A stretch of DNA of 64,000 bases from Squalus acanthias. Lineage: Eukaryota. The position numbers and the translations under genes are program-made. The stretch covers positions 36,148,001 through 36,212,000 of the forward strand of contig CM059432.1 of the NCBI GenBank assembly GCA_030390025.1, given 5' to 3'. Positions 25,930 through 44,374 of this stretch are shown piece after piece. Numbering within the stretch: position 1 is the stretch's first letter; the number at the start of each line of letters is the position of its first letter. The notes beneath the pieces were generated by a model. The model was not told the origin of the DNA, searched no databases, and saw only the letters and a list, made by a program, of their open reading frames with translations.

Positions 25930-26271
25930 TACATTACACTTGATCCCTTCATCTAAGTCATTAAGATAAATTGTAAAAAACAGGGCCAAGCACTGATCCT
26001 TGTGGCACCCCACTAGTTACAGCCTGCCAACCTGAAAATGACCCGTTTATCCCTACTCTCTGTTTTCTGTCCGTTAACCAATCCTCTATCCATGCTAATA
26101 TATTACCCCAACCCCATGCGCCCTTATCTTGCGTAGCAACCTTTTATGTGGCACCTTATTGAATGCCTTTTGGAAAACCATTGATTCCCCTTTATCTACC
26201 CTGCTAGTTATATCCTCAAAAAACTAATAAATTTGTTAAACACGATTTCCCTTTCCTAAAATCATGTTGAC

Positions 26272-26465
26272 TGTGGTAACACAATACAGCTTCCTGTGAC
26301 TCGAACTTTATTGCATCACTTCCTGTGATTAGTCCAGGATAAATACTGGACTGATCAGTTGGATCCTGGAGAGGCATAGAGTAAGACCTCTTTTGTATGT
26401 AGCACCTTTTTAGTTGATTAAAGCTTACTTTAAGTTCACCACGCGTAAGGCTCATTCTTACGACA
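26272..26465 (+). repeat. 5' LTR (194 bp)
   Basis: TGTGGTAA...TTACGACA (7/8 terminal inverted match); two CTTCCTGTGA repeats; ATTAAA at 26417-26422; identical to 30541-30734. Confidence 0.97.
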
Positions 26466-26466
26466 A

Positions 26467-26477
26467 TTTAATCAACT
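26467..26477 (+). promoter_or_regulatory. Non-tRNA primer-binding site complementary to the element's own LTR (putative self-priming)
   Basis: TTTAATCAACT, 1 nt after the LTR, is the exact reverse complement of AGTTGATTAAA at 26412-26422; no TGG-initiated tRNA complement at this position. Confidence 0.7.
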
Positions 26478-26543
26478 TTGGAAAACTTCGCACTCAAACT
26501 TTTTGGACGAACTCGGAACTAAGGATCCAGGGAATCACCCATC

Positions 26544-29500
26544 ATGGAAAACATCCTTAAACCATCGCGTCTTGACTTGGACCCAAACACCCCAGCAGCC
26601 GGTAAGGTGTGGAAACACTGGTATCGCACGTTTGACAATTTTCTTGAATATTGTAAGGCTGATGATAACTCAAAGTTACGGATACTCATCAACTGTGTCA
26701 CCCCGAATGTATTTCAGTATGTGGAGAAATGGGACAGTTACAAGGAGGCAATTCGGACGCTTAAGAGACTATATACTAAGACACCGAATGAGGTCTATGC
26801 CAGACATCTACTAGCTACAGCCCAACAAGGGCCAGAGGAATCCATTGATAAATTCCTCCAAGAGCTTCGCAGACTTAGTATGGACTGTAACTTTCGGGCG
26901 GCCTCAGCTGAGCTGTACCATGAAGAAATGATCCGTGATGCTTTCATCTGCGGGCTTGCCTCCCCATTTATACGCCAGCGTCTACTGGAAAGTAAGACAC
27001 TTGAGCTTCAGAGAGCTTATGACATGGCTTGCTCTCTAGATCTGGCAAAAAGAAATGCAGACCTTTATACAGTGCCCAGACCTCGGTCTACTGCCTTAAC
27101 TACAGTCAGGCAATTTAAGAGGCCACAGGTGAACTCTATTAGGGAGGTCTTTATCCCTGACGATCAATCTGATGACTTCACTGATGAAGAGGATGATGAC
27201 CCCACTGTGGCAGCCTCTTGGCAATCTAAGAAATGCTTCTTTTGTGGTGATGAGTTCCACCCTCGGAAATTCTGCCCTGCTCGCAATGCGTTTTGCAGTC
27301 ATTGCAACAAAAAGGGTCATTTTGCAAAGGTTTGCCTATCAAGAGCCTCTACGAGGGCTTATCAAGCTAAGTCCTACCGAACTGCCCCGGTAAGGGCCTA
27401 TCAAGATGTTCCGGCTAAAATCTATCGTGCTTCCTCTCGAAGAAACACACCTAGAGTTTCAGCCACTCTTTGTGCAACGACACCAACTGCTTGTCCTCAG
27501 AACCTATTCCATGCAGCTACAAAAGCATCAATTAATGGACATACTTTAGATGCCTTAATTGACTCAGGTAGCACTGATAGTTTCATTAGGGAACAGATTG
27601 TTGCAGAGTTAAAGCTACATGTTTTCCCATCGGACCAGGCAGTTGCGATGGCTCAGTCATCACTTAATACCAGAATTTCTGGCTTTTGTATGGTTGAAAT
27701 AACACTTAATGGCCGCAGGTATCCCTCCACCCGGCTTTCGGTGCTCAAGGACTTATGTAGTGATCTTATCTTAGGGCTGGATTTTCAAAAGCAGCATAAG
27801 AAGCTCACCATTGAGTTCGGCGGATCCAAACCTGAACTCACTATTTCTAATATACTACCTCGATTACCGTTCTGTGCATTGTCAGCAGCTTCACTGGATG
27901 AACCCTCACTGTTTTCCAGTATCCCTCCTCGATGCAAACCGATTATAACAAAGTCACGACGTTTCAGTCAGGAAGACCAGTCTTTTATTGCGGCTGAGAT
28001 TTCTCGGCTTTTAGCAGAGGATATCATCGAGCCTTGTTCGTCGCCATGGCGCGCCCAGGTCGTTTTTGTTAAGAACCCTCTACAACCTCACAAGAAACGG
28101 CTGTGCATTGACTATTCACAGACCATCAATCAATATACGGACTTGGACGCATACCCATTGCCGCGCATCGATGATATGGTTAATAAATTGGCTGAGTACA
28201 CGGTGTTCTCAACATATGATCTAAAAAGTGCCTATCATCAGATACCCTTGAAGGTCTCAGACAAGCAGTATACGGCCTTTGAAGCCAATGGACGGCTGTA
28301 TCAATTTCGTTGCCTCCCCTTTGGGGTCACTAATGGAGTGGCTGTCTTCCAGCGAGCAATGGATGACCTGGTCAAACAGGAAGACTTGAAGGATACGTTT
28401 CCTTATCTGGACAATATTACTGTCGCAGGTCGCAATCAGCGGGAACATGACGCCAATCTCCAACGATTTTGGGACGCACTCCAGCACCGTAATTTGACAT
28501 TAAATGCGGCTAAATCCATTGAGTCACAACCAACCATCAACATCCTTGGCTATTGTGTGGGCAATGGCATCATTAAACCTGACCCTGAAAGGCTTCGCCC
28601 ACTCCAAGAACTCCCGCCACCTAAGAATCCGGCCTCCTTGCGCCGGGCCCTCGGCCTGTTTGCATACTATGCTAAATGGATTCCTAACTTCTCGGACCGA
28701 ATCCAACCTCTACTGAAGGCCAGCACATTCCCACTAGACACAGCGGCTGTTGCAGCCTTTAACCTCCTGAAAAAACAGTTGGAGAAAGCGACTCTTCACT
28801 CCATCGATGAGAGTCTTCCTTTTGTCGTTGAGTGTGATGCCTCGGAGGTGGCGATCTCGGCCACTCTGAATCAGGAAGGTCGTCCGGTGGCATTTTTGTC
28901 CAGGACTTTTCAAGGGGCTGAGCTACATTATCCTCCAGTCGAGAAAGAAGCTACAGCCATCATAGAGGCAGTACGGAAGTGGAGTCATCTCCTAGCTCGC
29001 CAGCACTTTACCTTAATCACGGACCAGCGATCGGTCGCCTTCATGCTCGATAATCGAAAACGGACCAAAATTAAAAATAATAAAATCCAGCTTTGGCGGT
29101 TGGAATTGGCCTCTTTTGGTTACACCATCCACTATCGACCTGGCAAGGAGAATGTGGCTCCGGATACCCTCACACGAGCATTCTGCTCCGCCATGGCACC
29201 CTCTATGCTCGTAGACATCCATGATGGGTTGTGTCATCCGGGCGTTACTCGCATGCTACACTTCGTGCGGTCCCGAAATCTCCCATTCTCTACCGGGGAT
29301 GTAAAGAAGACGTGCTCGGACTGCAGAGTCTGTGCGGAATTGAAACCTCGGTTTTTCCGCCCCTCGGGTGGTATACTCATACATGCGACCCAGCCAATGC
29401 AACGGCTTAGCATCGATTTTAAGGGGCCGTTGCCCTCTTCAACTCGCAACACTTATCTATTGACCATGGTCGATGAGTATTCCCGTTTTCCGTTTGCCTT

Positions 29501-30476
29501 TCCCTGCCCCAATATGCTGACGACCACGGTTATCAGCTGCCTTGAGCAGGTATTTGCTTTCTGTGGCATGGCATCCTATGTTCATTCGGATCGGGGCCCT
29601 TCTTTTATGTCAGGAGAACTCAAGGCCTATCTCTCGGAACGGGGTATTGCTGCCAGCAAAACGACGCCTTATCATCCGGTCGGGAATGGGCAAGTCGAGC
29701 GTTTTAACGCTATCATCTGGAATGCGGTACGTCTGGCTTTGAGATCTCGGGGCTTACCCAACCAGCAATGGGAAGCAGTGCTTCCAGACGCATTACACTC
29801 CACACGGTCCCTCCTTTCGACCGCCACAAATACGACGCCTCATGAACGGTTCTTCCGATTTCAGCGTCGCTCATCCTATGGGATATCTCTCCCGTCGTGG
29901 CTGACTGCACCGGGACCAGTGCTACTCCGAAGATATGTCCGGGCGTCTAAGAATGACCCCCTGGTAGATGAGGTTGAGCTCACTGACGTCAACCCTACCT
30001 ACGACTATATTCGGTATCCTGACGGTCGGGAATCTACCGTGTCATTGCGGGATCTGGCTCCCTGCCCGCCGAAACATAGAGGGACACCAGGGGATGATAT
30101 TGTACCAGGCACATCTCTGGGCTCGCCAGGTGCCTCTCATCACGATCTGGATCTGACGCCGGCTGGTACCTCACTCCAGCGTGCCGACCTGGGGCAGACT
30201 GACTATGAGCCCGTCGGGGCTCACACGCGCAGCCACGATCCACCCTGTACCGTACGCTCGGAAACGGATCTGCCACAGCCCTGCCCGACACCCGTTCGGG
30301 CACCAGTACACAGTCAGGATCGTCCTGACCCCTCACAGAGCGGGCTGGATCGCTCGGACTCTGGTCCACGGCCCGCGGCGGGTAAACGGGCTAGGGGCCC
30401 TCTACCGCTACGAGAACCCAAACGGGTGCGGCTCTCCCTCGTCCAGCGGCTACGAAATGGAGGGAGAATGTGGTAA
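26544..30476 (+). CDS. Single-frame Gag-Pol polyprotein, 1310 aa
   Basis: Two CCHC knuckles (CFFCGDEFHPRKFC, CSHCNKKGHFAKVC), protease LIDSGS, RT (YDLKSAYHQ, LPFG, YLDN), RNase H (CDAS, EKE, TDQ, PDTL), integrase HHCC and DD35E; no stops or frameshifts. Confidence 0.96.
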   Translation: MENILKPSRLDLDPNTPAAGKVWKHWYRTFDNFLEYCKADDNSKLRILINCVTPNVFQYVEKWDSYKEAIRTLKRLYTKTPNEVYARHLLATAQQGPEESIDKFLQELRRLSMDCNFRAASAELYHEEMIRDAFICGLASPFIRQRLLESKTLELQRAYDMACSLDLAKRNADLYTVPRPRSTALTTVRQFKRPQVNSIREVFIPDDQSDDFTDEEDDDPTVAASWQSKKCFFCGDEFHPRKFCPARNAFCSHCNKKGHFAKVCLSRASTRAYQAKSYRTAPVRAYQDVPAKIYRASSRRNTPRVSATLCATTPTACPQNLFHAATKASINGHTLDALIDSGSTDSFIREQIVAELKLHVFPSDQAVAMAQSSLNTRISGFCMVEITLNGRRYPSTRLSVLKDLCSDLILGLDFQKQHKKLTIEFGGSKPELTISNILPRLPFCALSAASLDEPSLFSSIPPRCKPIITKSRRFSQEDQSFIAAEISRLLAEDIIEPCSSPWRAQVVFVKNPLQPHKKRLCIDYSQTINQYTDLDAYPLPRIDDMVNKLAEYTVFSTYDLKSAYHQIPLKVSDKQYTAFEANGRLYQFRCLPFGVTNGVAVFQRAMDDLVKQEDLKDTFPYLDNITVAGRNQREHDANLQRFWDALQHRNLTLNAAKSIESQPTINILGYCVGNGIIKPDPERLRPLQELPPPKNPASLRRALGLFAYYAKWIPNFSDRIQPLLKASTFPLDTAAVAAFNLLKKQLEKATLHSIDESLPFVVECDASEVAISATLNQEGRPVAFLSRTFQGAELHYPPVEKEATAIIEAVRKWSHLLARQHFTLITDQRSVAFMLDNRKRTKIKNNKIQLWRLELASFGYTIHYRPGKENVAPDTLTRAFCSAMAPSMLVDIHDGLCHPGVTRMLHFVRSRNLPFSTGDVKKTCSDCRVCAELKPRFFRPSGGILIHATQPMQRLSIDFKGPLPSSTRNTYLLTMVDEYSRFPFAFPCPNMLTTTVISCLEQVFAFCGMASYVHSDRGPSFMSGELKAYLSERGIAASKTTPYHPVGNGQVERFNAIIWNAVRLALRSRGLPNQQWEAVLPDALHSTRSLLSTATNTTPHERFFRFQRRSSYGISLPSWLTAPGPVLLRRYVRASKNDPLVDEVELTDVNPTYDYIRYPDGRESTVSLRDLAPCPPKHRGTPGDDIVPGTSLGSPGASHHDLDLTPAGTSLQRADLGQTDYEPVGAHTRSHDPPCTVRSETDLPQPCPTPVRAPVHSQDRPDPSQSGLDRSDSGPRPAAGKRARGPLPLREPKRVRLSLVQRLRNGGRMW

Positions 30477-30527
30477 CACAATACAGCTTCCTGTGACTCG
30501 AACTTCATCCCGGCCTCCTAATCTTTT

Positions 30528-30540
30528 GGGGGGGGGAGAA
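30528..30540 (+). promoter_or_regulatory. Polypurine tract
   Basis: GGGGGGGGGAGAA directly before the 3' LTR. Confidence 0.9.
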
Positions 30541-30734
30541 TGTGGTAACACAATACAGCTTCCTGTGACTCGAACTTTATTGCATCACTTCCTGTGATTA
30601 GTCCAGGATAAATACTGGACTGATCAGTTGGATCCTGGAGAGGCATAGAGTAAGACCTCTTTTGTATGTAGCACCTTTTTAGTTGATTAAAGCTTACTTT
30701 AAGTTCACCACGCGTAAGGCTCATTCTTACGACA
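30541..30734 (+). repeat. 3' LTR (194 bp)
   Basis: Identical to the 5' LTR by eye; followed by TSD TTGAC. Confidence 0.97.
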
Positions 30735-31479
30735 TTGACTCTGCCTAATCATATTATGATTTTCTAAATGCCCTGTTACCACACCCTTAATAATGGATTG
30801 CAGCATTTTCCCAACAACTGATGTCAGGCTAACTGGCCTGTATTTCCTTGTTTCCTCTCTCCCTCCTTTATTGAATTAGCGGGGTTACATTTGCTACCTT
30901 CCAATCCACTAGGACCGTTCTCGAATCTAGGGAATTTTGAAAGATCACAACCAATGGATCCATTCTTTCTGCAGCCACCTCTTTTAGAACCCTAGGCTGT
31001 AGGCCATCAGGTCCAGGGGATTTGTCAGCTTTTAGTCCGATTAGTTTCTCAATTACTTTTTCTCTACTGATCTTAATTAATTTAAGTTCCTCACTCTCGT
31101 TAGCCCCTTGGTTCCCCACTATTTTTGGTATGCTTTTTGTGTCTTCTACTGTGAGGACAGATACAAAATATTTGTTTAAAGTCTCTGCCATTTCCTTATT
31201 TCCCATTATAATTTCTCCTGTCTCAGCCTCTAAGGGACCAACGCTTACTTTTGCTACTCTTGTAGAGAGAGACAAGAACGAAAGATTCAATGATGGTTAT
31301 GACTCTACTCAGAGGAAAAGCGGGGTAATATCATTTATTCCTCTGTATACCTGCTGCTTAGACATTGAGTGCGTCAAGACTTGGTCGAACACAATAAACA
31401 ATTTAGTTGCAACCATATTTGGTGTCAGATTCGAATTCTCTTACACCTCCTCCCACCTCAATGTCAAAAAATGACGGCA

Positions 31480-39781: not shown

Positions 39782-40522
39782 CCTCCCTCCAGTCCGAAAA
39801 ACAGCCATTCACCACAACTCTGTTTTCTATCCCTTAGCCAATTTTGTATCCATGTTGCTACTGCCCATTTTATCCCATGGGCTTCAATTTTGGTAACTAG
39901 CCTATTATGTGGTACTTTATCAAATGCCTTTTGAAAGTCCATATACACAACATCAACTGCACTGCCCTCATCCACCCACTCTGTTGCCTTATCAAAAAAC
40001 TCAATTAAGTTAGTCAAACATGATTTGCCTTTAACAAATCCGTGCTGGCTCTCCTTTATTAGTCCATGAAGATGTGTACTGTTGTGTGATAGATTTGGTC
40101 TTGACATCAATATGGTTACCAGTGATTTTTAATGATTTCCAATCCAAACATTTAACACACTTAAGGGGCAAAATTCATTATCGCCCAGGAATGGGCGCTA
40201 ACATCTGAAAAGTTTGAGATTTAGCGCCAGGCGCTAATGAATCTCGCTGCACGCTAAATTCAGTATCATCGCTCAAAGAAAGGATGGGAGCGCTAAATCA
40301 AATGCTAGCGGCCTAGCTCAGTGGCGATAGACTCAAAGTGCTAAGCAATTTCAGGTGCAGTCTAATCACTAGTCATCATTGCCGCAGGCTTTTTCCAGTT
40401 CTTAAAGGGGAGATTAAATCATGCTGCAGAACCTCATTCTCAGCCTTGCTGGTTCTGCAGCTGTCTCAGCCAGCAGCAGAAGGCCAAGGAGAAGGAACCC
40501 GACCACTGAAGAAGGTGTCATT

Positions 40523-42403
40523 ATGGCAGCTCAACGGCCCAGGGAGAGAGCTCGCAGATTCTGCGACCAAGCATTGGAGGCGTTGGTCTTCGCTGTGGAG
40601 AGACGGAGGGCGGTGCTGTACCCGGCAAATGGCAGGAGGCCTTCACCCCAAGTCTTCCGTGCCATGTGGAGGGAGGTTGCCCAGCAGGTCTCGGGCAGCA
40701 CTGTGGTCCCCAGGACCCACACACGGTGCAGGAAGAAATTTAACAACCTCACTCGGGTGGTCAGGGTGAGTCAATCCTTCAACAAATGCTACATACCACC
40801 ATCTGAACCTCAGTCTGCACACACTGCCCAAAGCACCACACCCCAGCACTCACCCACCAACAATCTCCACCTACCAACACTCACACCCACATCTCACACC
40901 TTGCACACAATGACAGCTATTCAACTATGGCAGGCACATCACCCAAACACATTGCTCCACACTCACTCACACACTTTCCTTTCTCTTGCAGGCCAAGGTG
41001 GCTCACAACAGGAGGGAGCAGGAGCGCACAGGCGGGGGACAAGCTGACACCCAAACACTTTCTGAGCTGGTGGAAAGAGTGCTGCGAATCATTGGGCGCC
41101 AGGTGGTGGGCGCTGTGGCCACCGGCGACGTTGCAACAACAGTATGTTCATCCCTACTCCTTCTTCTCACATCCCATTTGACCCTCAACCCACAAGCTTT
41201 TCCCACTTTCCAGCTAATCATGCTGTGTGCATGCCTTTCTCCCTTCCTGCCCCCCTCTCGTCACCTTAACCTGACTCTTGTGCCTTTATGCTTTCAGATA
41301 ATGAGCAAGCAGCTGAGCAGCCTGTCCCTGAGGGCACCATAGAGAGCGAGGCGGGAGAAGAGGAGGAAGAACACACCGTGTCACTGCATGTCTCACCCGC
41401 AGGCACCAGCTCAGATACTGGCACTACACATTCTTTAGAGGCTAGTATAGTAGTGGGATCTGCACAGGGTGAGGCACCGGGAACGAGGGGGCTGCAGCAA
41501 GGCCAGGGGGAAAGGATATCTCGGGAGTCAGCTCCCTGGAGAGCGAGTTTGCGTGTGTATTCTGCTGCACAGGACTCAGATGAATACATCGATGGGGAAG
41601 CCTTTAGAAGAAGGGTGATGGGCATGCACATGGAGATGATAGATGCAATGGCAAGGGTGCTTGAGAGCCTCTCAGCAATGGTAAGGAGCATGGAGGAGTC
41701 CGCCTCCAACATTGCACAGAGCTCTGCACACACCATGGAGCCCATCATTTGAAGTCTGCAGAGGATGGTGGCCTCCCAGAGAGACCGTGGCGACCCAGAC
41801 CTCATGTTGGGCAATGTCGCAGCATCCATTGCAGCACAGGCAGAAGCCACGCAACTTCTTAGTGCTGTAATGCAGTCTATGGTTGGTGCCATCCAATCTC
41901 AGACTGCTCTCGTGCAGTCTCAGCTTGATGCCACGCAAGCTCTGACTGCTGCCATTATGACTGGGTCGACCTCCGTCCAACGGGGCTTTCACGGTGTCGC
42001 AGCAGGCCAGCAATCTGTGCTCCAGTAGATTGATAGTGATGCTGAGGTGCTGCCCCGGGGGAGTGGCCGTGGGTCAGTGGAGCAGGAAGCTGCTGTCCTC
42101 TCTCAGGATGACAGCATTCCTGCTCCCACCGCTGCTGCTCCACCATTGCCCTTGTCTCTGCCTGTCATCCAGCCAGCCCAGACTGCTGCCGCCCATGCTG
42201 AGGTGGTGCAGTCTACAGCCGGGCCTTCCAGGCCCAGAGCTGGTCGAGGGCGTCCTGCGAGGCCATCTGAAGTCTCCCACACGGACACTCAGCAGCCTTC
42301 CACCCGCCGTGCTGCAGCCACTGGGCCAACACTTCGTAGGAGCACTAGAGTAGGCAAAGGCACAGTAACGACAGGCACTAAGGGATTGCACAAGGGTGAA
42401 TAG
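40523..42403 (+). pseudogene. Harbinger Myb/SANT-like DNA-binding protein, 3 exons (40523-40765, 40992-41141, 41298-42403)
   Basis: RF..ALEALV..V..RRAVLY...WREVA...RT...CRKKFNNL and RTGGG motifs; GT-AG sites; exon 2/3 phase off by 1 nt; two in-frame stops (41750, 42026). Confidence 0.8.
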
Positions 42404-42568
42404 CTAATATTGTTGTTGTAAATATGTGTTCACTGATTATTGATAAATTTATTAATTGGCTTTGGATGATTTTGTGGTGTCTCTCATTTCAGTTGTGCGC
42501 TGTGATATGGCCTGTGACAGGGATGGAATGATGGGGATGTGGTGAGCAACGGGGATCTGGGGTTTAAT

Positions 42569-43773
42569 TTATTGGAACCGCAGTCTGATGAGGCAGTCAC
42601 GAACCGCCCTTCCAAAAGGCTGATTGAGTGGCTGCCTCCTCCCTCGCTCTTGTTCCTCCTCCTCCTCCTCCTCCTCCTCCTCGTCTTCCTCTTCCTCCTC
42701 CTCCTCGTCCTCCTCCTCCTCTCCCTCTTCCTCCTCCTGAGATGGTCCCGCAATCCCTGGTGGCAAGGGATGGGCCCTCATGATGGCCTAGTTGTGGTGC
42801 ATGCAGCAGACCACGACGAAATGGGACACCCGCTCCGGCTAGTACTGGAGGGCTCCTCCCGAGCGGTCAAGACAGCGGAACCATTGCTTGAGCACCCCGA
42901 TGATCTGCTCGATGATGTTCCTGGTGGCAGCATGGCTCTCATTATATGAGTGCTGAGCAAGAGTGTTGGGGTTGCGGAGGGCAGTCATGAGCCAGGTGGA
43001 GAGCGGATAGCCCTTCTCTCCGAGCAGCCGGCCGCGAGCTTGATGTGGCGGCTGGAAGAGTGCTGGCACACCGGTCTGGCACAGGATGAAGGCATTGTGG
43101 CTGCTGCCAGGATAGCGGGCATTCACATTGAGGATTCGCTGTCTGTGGTTGCAAACCAACTGCACATTAAGTGAGTGGTAGCCTTTGCGGTTACGGAAGA
43201 TCTCAGGATTGTTATGTGGTGCCTGCAAAGCCACGTGGGTGCAGTCAATGGCGCCCTGCACCATGGGGAAGCCCGCTATCCTGGCAAAGCCACATGCACA
43301 TTCGTCCTGCTTCTCTCTGGTGATGGGGAAGGAAATGTAGTCCCTTCTCCTACTGTAGAGAGCCTCTGTGACCTCCCATATGCAGCGATGGATGGCGAAC
43401 TGCGAGATGTTAGCTATATATCCTGTTGCAGACTAGAGGAACTGCTGGCGAAGAAATTGAGGGCAACGGTGACCTTGACTGCCACTGAGAGCGCTGTGGT
43501 CGACCTGATCTGAAGCTCGAGGTCTGGTTGCAGGAGGTGGCAGAGTTCTGTGACCACATCCTTGTTGAAGCGGAGCCTTCTAATGCACTGCTCCTCGCTT
43601 AATTGGAGGCAGGAGAAGTGCTCTCGGAATACCCTCGGAGGGTAAGGCCTCCTGTTGAGAGCCCTGATGGCCCTCCTCCTCCCTCTGGCCACATCTTGCA
43701 ATCTTTCTCGCTGCCTCCGCTCCCTCCACAGTAGATCCTGGAGGGCGAGGTCGACTGCCAGTACAGCGCCCAT
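42569..43773 (-). pseudogene. Harbinger (HARBI1-like) DDE transposase, disrupted
   Basis: RRLRF, VALNFFA, VQGAIDCTHV, NRKGYHSLNVQ, YPGS, LLGEKGY (GD changed to GE), YNESH..TRNIIEQ..GVLK.WFRCL; poly-Glu tail; frameshifts and stops. Confidence 0.88.
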
Positions 43774-44374
43774 TAATGTAACGATGTGTAGCACTTTGAA
43801 AATGTTGTCAGAATAAATGTAACAAACTTTTAGCAGCCACAACACTCCTGATACTAAAAAAACCTTTAAATGACTGAATTAAATTCTTGCACAATCGCAA
43901 ACTGACAAGGAAGCAGTGAAACAGCACGAACCTGACAGCTGTGACTGGTCCCTTTAAATATCGGCCCTGGAGCCGCCATCTGCCTGCTTGACACCTCCTC
44001 TTCCTGTCGTTGTCGGGGTGAGGCACTAAGGCAGGGGGCGATAATCAATTTGGCAGATCGGGCGCTGAGTGAGCATTGCACGCTCACTGACGCCACGATC
44101 TGCCTGGTGCTAAAGCCCAGGCGCTAACTGTTAGCGGCGGCGCTAAGGGGCAACAGGATTTGGCTTGCGGCGCTGGATTCGCCTCGCCCCGGCGCTACTT
44201 CATTAGCGCCCCGTTAGCTCCCCCGCCAGGCGCTAACGGGAGGCGCTAACCAACCGAATTTCTCCCTCTTAATGTCTAAGCAAGAACATATACAGAGATT
44301 TGAACCCGTTATAAAAAACTTTTGCGATTACAGCTTTATTTCTGAAACTTTCGCTAATACTACATATTTAAAAT

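Follow-up and report, generated by a model that had tools for sequence, protein, structure and literature searches.

The textbook reverse transcriptase (RT) needs three aspartates. In yeast Ty1 RT, according to the passages of PMC2148107 that treat this residue, the Asp-to-Asn mutant D211N keeps polymerase activity (a Glu there loses it), neither of the two remaining aspartates is dispensable, and carboxylate mutants of Ty3 RT are cited as similarly flexible. The same passages give D211N a 223-fold lower kpol, a preference for Mn2+ and abolished transposition, with RNase H suppressors restoring 5–10% transposition. The preliminary description of the element reported here had stated that this change keeps the polymerase and blocks transposition, and those passages bear this out.

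Asn at the third position also occurs in nature. The relevant text of PMC554778 (citing Bowen and McDonald) lists C. elegans Cer7–Cer12, which belong to BEL/Pao (Belpaoviridae), as carrying YVDN, and states that biochemistry on whether YVDN RTs retain activity is still awaited. The YVDN of Ancylostoma Atlas virus is called a distinguishing feature where PMC9094657 describes that virus.

The element described here lies in a 64,000-nucleotide stretch of DNA (the window, to which all coordinates refer; every feature is on the forward strand). Very probably, an envelope-less Ty3/Gypsy retrotransposon with a single ORF inserted here recently, and it belongs to a marine-animal lineage with a natural two-aspartate RT. 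Its motif C reads YLDN, which is of the YxDN form seen in the BEL/Pao YVDN elements and departs from the canonical three-aspartate YxDD, a departure found lineage-wide. Position and substitution are those of Ty1 D211N, a mutant whose polymerase survives, but the Ty1 change was engineered, whereas the change here is natural and under purifying selection. With the nematode BEL/Pao elements, as far as their published descriptions reach, it shares a natural Asp-to-Asn change at the last YxDD position, intact elements and identical LTRs. However, BEL/Pao elements have a triple Cys-His gag and an integrase D–E spacing of 45–53 (in the comparison given by PMC554778), whereas we found two knuckles and a spacing of 35, together with a Ty3-like RT, no env, and Asn that alternates with Asp between sister families. 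Since the element belongs to a different superfamily from BEL/Pao, the Asp-to-Asn change would be convergent. The primer-binding site (PBS) shows complementarity to the element's own LTR, which is the self-priming layout of Tf1, Tj1 and sushi (as set out in the part of PMC4600332 on priming), but unlike Tf1 and sushi, this element has no chromodomain match and carries a twin-knuckle gag.

Homologues of the 1310-aa ORF include proteins of 1190–1260 aa. Cigr-1, with one ORF of ~1210 codons and short LTRs, resembles these homologues, and the element's twin zinc knuckles presumably resemble those of Mag-type gag; its clade may be Cigr-1 or Mag-related. The Cigr-1 clade and the Mag lineage both appear as metazoan Ty3/Gypsy clade names in the classification text of PMC6238403. 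The string YLDN is absent from the searched supplements of that paper, and the motif goes unmentioned in the searched portions of PMC2774666, PMC13524379, PMC3118150, PMC3601003 and PMC6934838. Our search covered the open-licence literature and found no report of a natural YxDN in Gypsy. A natural YxDN was therefore already known in nematode BEL/Pao and, as far as the open-licence literature was searched, is new for Ty3/Gypsy.

A Gypsy lineage that is evidently spreading with Asn means that the requirement for the third aspartate depends on context, and it adds a second, independent natural case to nematode BEL/Pao. Natural Asn/Asp sister pairs make the activity question, as worded in the relevant text of PMC554778, testable with unaltered enzymes. 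There is also a practical consequence: where an annotation pipeline treats YxDN as an inactivating change, such elements would be taken for dead in error.

Structure of the element

The insertion is bounded by a 5-bp target-site duplication (TSD; left copy 26267..26271, right copy 30735..30739), evident from the flanks and from the empty-site joint. This joint, 26266->30735 in sequencing runs X1 and X2, skips 4468 nt, i.e., 4463 + 5. The 5′ LTR (26272..26465) and the 3′ LTR (30541..30734) are 194 bp each, begin with TG and end with CA, and have 0 mismatches, so the earlier statement that they are identical stands. A polypurine tract (30528..30540) precedes the 3′ LTR.

Between the LTRs is a single gag-PR-RT-RH-IN ORF of 1310 aa (26544..30476; ATG at 26544, stop codon at 30474–30476). 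The gag part holds two CX2CX4HX4C zinc knuckles (27234..27335, read in translation), in which C231, C234, C244, C251, C254, H259 and C264 are invariant in the homologue alignment A1. Pfam places the remaining domains in the order protease, RT, RNase H, integrase zinc finger and integrase core. The aspartic protease (27522..27785; PF13975, E 2.4e-10) has its DSG at 27561 (D340), the RT core (28116..28553; RVT_1, PF00078, E 1.5e-22) has its first catalytic aspartate, D559, at 28218, and the RNase H (28809..29165; PF17917, E 2.2e-26) has D765, E802, D827 and D874. The integrase (29193..29699; PF17921 and PF00665) combines an HHCC finger with a D-D-35-E core whose catalytic triad, D958-D1016-(35)-E1052, is present. 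A chromo family is missing at the integrase C-terminus among the 9 Pfam hits at E <= 0.001. The element thus shows the PR-RT-RH-IN order, TG..CA LTRs, polypurine tract, short TSD, HHCC finger and D-D-35-E core of Ty3/Gypsy.

The best PDB sequence matches of its RT are to yeast Ty3 RT (4OL8, E 4.9e-39). An AF2 model of the RT-RNase H region (mean pLDDT 89.8) has a TMq of 0.70 to Ty3 RT (4ol8_A), and in a fold ranking CaMV RT comes first and Ty3 RT second; the model was built without metals or substrate, which puts catalytic geometry beyond its reach.

Motif C and its homologues

Motif C (28404..28415) is TAT CTG GAC AAT, in frame in the 1310-aa ORF, and its YLDN aligns to the catalytic YLDD of Ty3 RT in the same 4OL8 match, with Asn624 (28413–28415) at the third-aspartate position. 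The YLDN reported in the preliminary description is therefore confirmed, and its companion claim, that the other catalytic acids are intact, also held: D340, D559, D623, D765/E802/D827/D874 and D958-D1016-E1052 were all found.

In the 120 long homologues closest to the element, the motif ends in Asn in 98 and in Asp in 22, and the first catalytic aspartate is retained in 119. The best 120 shorter homologues are similarly divided (Asn 90, Asp 25, other 5). Representatives of 50%-identity clusters cover the site in 148 of 150 matches: at >=40% identity (n=96), Asn and Asp are equally common (47 each, other 2), and below 40% identity, all 52 have Asp. Both Asn codons occur in metagenome loci, where the motif is covered in 60 of 80 (AAT 26, AAC 14, GAC 11, GAT 7, other 2). 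However, many of these loci are near-copies of each other (e.g., L007/8/9/31/41 and L004/5/64), so locus counts overstate independence. Two related metagenome loci, L077 and L078, read xxEN at motif C and are probably decayed copies.

Named carriers of Asn include mantis shrimp, prawns, a copepod, corals, a sea anemone, a sea slug and catsharks. The nearest named proteins are from crustaceans and coral (67–70%), with catshark proteins at 58–60%. Two scans of viral contigs found no relative.

Clusters at 90% identity are close to uniform at this position. Among sampled members covering the motif, five clusters have Asn in 7/8, 10/10, 11/11, 6/6 and 9/9, the sole exception being one member that reads YLDI, and two other clusters are fixed for Asp (12/12 each). 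In these alignments, most of the lineage has Asn, which uses both codons and is fixed in multi-copy families. The preliminary description had offered two readings of the motif, a private GAT>AAT lesion or a natural two-aspartate RT lineage, to be separated by aligning copies and homologues. Alignment shows Asn across copies and phyla with AAT and AAC both used, and it strongly supports a natural lineage, given that Asn is fixed within multi-copy families and common to several phyla.

Phylogeny of the Asn and Asp families

A FastTree tree of 254 RT rows separates a 202-row ingroup from 52 distant Asp rows (support 0.935). The ingroup contains 136 Asn rows, 65 Asp rows and 1 other. A second tree left out the motif columns and retained six outgroup rows; on it, the ingroup needs 19 Asn/Asp changes, compared to 47–62 when labels are shuffled. 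An Asp-rooted reconstruction has 2–6 gains of Asn and 13–17 returns to Asp.

We also used a maximum-likelihood (ML) subset of 53 rows, whose groups were picked after the first tree had been seen. One clade (SH-aLRT 95) unites the full set of 25 Asn rows with 13 nested Asp rows, the 12 basal Asp rows fall outside this Asn-containing clade, and the starred branches force at least 7 state changes. Monophyly of Asn alone is rejected (p-AU 4e-63). Asn is thus not fixed across the sampled lineage sequences but alternates with Asp between sister families; examples of sister pairs that differ at position 624 are P0069/P0077, P0118/P0092 and P0067/P0114. The trees suggest that Asn was gained and that repeated returns to Asp followed, a direction of change that depends on the root.

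Among the columns listed, no RT column switches together with Asn/Asp, a comparison of low power with only 6 well-supported pairs. Raw residue differences between the Asn and Asp groups track kinship. At approximately 40 RT and RNase H positions, Asn members agree with Asp members against the outgroup, including near-invariant lineage residues of the fingers and RNase H that the outgroup is missing (e.g., R503, Q505, S525, Q828, K844 and N845). These ~40 lineage-wide positions are candidates for a permissive background.

Priming

The PBS (26467..26477) begins one base after the 5′ LTR, and its 11 bases are complementary to LTR positions 141–151, i.e., to the candidate self-primer at 26412..26422, which would be the 5′ end of the transcript. 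None of 500 shuffles matches this pairing. A self-complementary PBS is present in 23 of the 29 loci that include the ORF start, and L005 has a PBS-LTR match of 16 nt. Five loci have no pairing (L010, which starts too near the ORF, L033, L065, L077 and L078), and L059 gave an unrelated match in the PBS-LTR comparison.

Across 11 aligned elements, some of them near-copies, all 121 of 121 helix cells are paired and 6 of 11 pairs have two-sided changes. The covariation score of the self-primer helix is reached by 0 of 500 shuffles, and sliding the register destroys the signal. A single-sequence fold of 26360–26500 makes the helix, and overall this fold is no better than shuffles (z 0.11).

On this analysis, reverse transcription probably starts by self-priming of the Tf1 kind: the initial ~11 RNA bases would pair with the PBS, and RNase H would cut them free as the primer. 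By state, the self-complementary PBS is found in 18/22 Asn loci, 4/5 Asp loci (L017, L034, L069 and L073) and 1/2 unscored loci. Because Asp members share the self-pairing PBS, self-priming does not explain Asn one-to-one and does not require it, and the link between Asn and unusual priming that had been proposed for this element is not supported in that form.

The self-primer segment (26412–26425 and its relatives) has a conserved AAA at its end, with [G/A]C next, and it often resembles a polyadenylation hexamer. A poly(A) signal in the 5′ LTR could also be hidden when the segment pairs with the PBS.

Selection on the Asn families and their probable activity

Asn rows keep D559 in 132/134 and D623 in 135/136, whereas the median column is conserved at 0.70. 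Comparison of distinct Asn families gives a pN/pS of 0.07–0.13 in five pairs and, in more distant pairs, 0.19–0.38 with saturated pS. Five Asn loci (L004, L007, L008, L009 and L031) have distinct 5-bp TSDs and 0–2 LTR mismatches, and the same examination of LTRs and TSDs found no TSD at L002 and L051. Recent transposition together with selection on the polymerase site favours autonomous activity over help in trans. From these sequence patterns, we infer that the Asn-family enzymes are active.

The window copy and its near-identical contigs

Copies of the element's own family were compared through sequencing-run contigs. Contigs from runs X2, X3 and X12, filed under three other organism codes, extend across the motif without a change in it: all of their differences from this copy lie outside the motif (31/31 for X2, 24/24 for X3 and 11/11 for X12). 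X12 may be an RNA run. Run X1 may hold a minor Asp variant beyond the differences listed.

Between this copy and the X2 contig, 31 codons differ; 10 of the changes are synonymous and 21 non-synonymous, which for ~846 synonymous and ~2676 non-synonymous sites is close to neutral. A 39-nt duplicate of the LTR start (30467..30505; a third LTR-start match begins at 30469) contains the ORF stop codon. The X2, X3 and X12 contigs lack it and join 30466->30506. Lying before the true polypurine tract, the duplicate may be the trace of a strand transfer that went wrong as this copy was produced. The element had been called otherwise pristine, a slight overstatement in view of the 39-nt duplicate and the near-neutral changes. 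The window copy, which carries these near-neutral changes, is young and may itself be inactive.

Among the main contigs of X2, X3 and X12, just two differences are listed (at 28984 and 30252) in ~2.8 kb. In the gag-protease linker, in-frame length differences at 27433 and 27486 (12 and 6 nt) set the window and run X1 apart from X2, X3 and X12. More than half of the element's words are present in 19 runs under 8 organism codes. Near-identity between organism codes could reflect recent horizontal spread or simply close species.

Mechanism and alternative explanations

The natural pattern fits the Ty1 data: two aspartates are invariant, and the third position is limited to Asp or Asn. In our proposed mechanism, D559 and D623 would bind both metals and carry out the chemistry. 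Position 624 would need only a certain size and one carbonyl oxygen, both common to Asp and Asn, which would be why almost no third residue occurs there. The third residue would then have a role in positioning or in handling pyrophosphate, one that Asn can fill in the background of this lineage. Tolerance of Asn would come from the lineage-wide enzyme background, not from a single partner residue changing in step with position 624. Since Ty1 D211N is 223-fold slower and does not transpose, something in the natural Asn lineage must compensate. A fuller version of this proposal, which we offer tentatively and regard as rather doubtful in its entirety, is that RT and RNase H were remodelled along with RNase H-dependent self-priming as a natural counterpart of the Ty1 D211N suppressors, and that the third aspartate thereby became optional. 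The lineage would then form a branch of animal Gypsy elements, so far undescribed, that self-prime and use two aspartates, with actively transposing sister families that differ by Asn or Asp at a residue regarded as essential in vivo and at least 7 independent switches.

Other accounts of the Asn were weighed as well. Asp may have changed to Asn in this copy alone after insertion, inactivating it, and the copy does have other private-looking changes as well as its private 39-nt duplicate; but with Asn in 98/120 homologues, both codons in use and the X2, X3 and X12 contigs unchanged at the motif, the private lesion of the preliminary description is refuted. It is very unlikely that the Asn polymerase is dead or nearly so and that Asn elements are copied in trans by Asp relatives in the same genome. 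Asp families do sit inside the same clade, and Ty1 D211N fails to transpose (PMC2148107, same passages), but the near-invariance of D559 and D623 and a pN/pS of ~0.1 across saturated synonymous distances would be unexpected for a dispensable polymerase, and Asn is fixed in multi-copy clusters.

Two further accounts make Asn itself advantageous, and we consider each of them unlikely. Asn could be an adaptation tied to self-priming, in which the polymerase, slowed or re-tuned, would suit the primer-making RNase H step. The lineage has both traits, along with fingers and RNase H residues of its own that are missing in the outgroup, but its Asp members self-pair equally and have the same lineage residues. 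Tf1-type fungal elements keep YxDD, which also counts against such a tie, and the nematode YVDN elements are a separate group. The part of PMC4600332 on priming describes self-priming in Tf1-type elements. In favour of the adaptation, the suppressors of Ty1 D211N map to RNase H according to the PMC2148107 passages. A permissive link, in which the background allows Asn, is possible; an obligatory link does not fit. Alternatively, Asn could be a selected attenuation (a lower copying rate or an altered metal preference), with the Asp families as bursts of activity, and this is improbable too. The slower, Mn2+-preferring Ty1 D211N (PMC2148107, in the sections on its kinetics) is in line with attenuation, as are the two largest clusters among those listed (444 and 242 members), which are nested Asp families; however, cluster size depends on sampling, and Asn clusters of 137, 78 and 46 members exist.

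Surrounding sequence

The element is inserted within a LINE fragment. Across much of the window from 6000 to 54000 there are many LINE RT remnants that carry FADD motifs, which we take to be of the CR1 type typical of cartilaginous fishes. Judging by their translations, ORFs at 40418–43878 presumably resemble a Myb/SANT-type protein and a Harbinger-like transposase.
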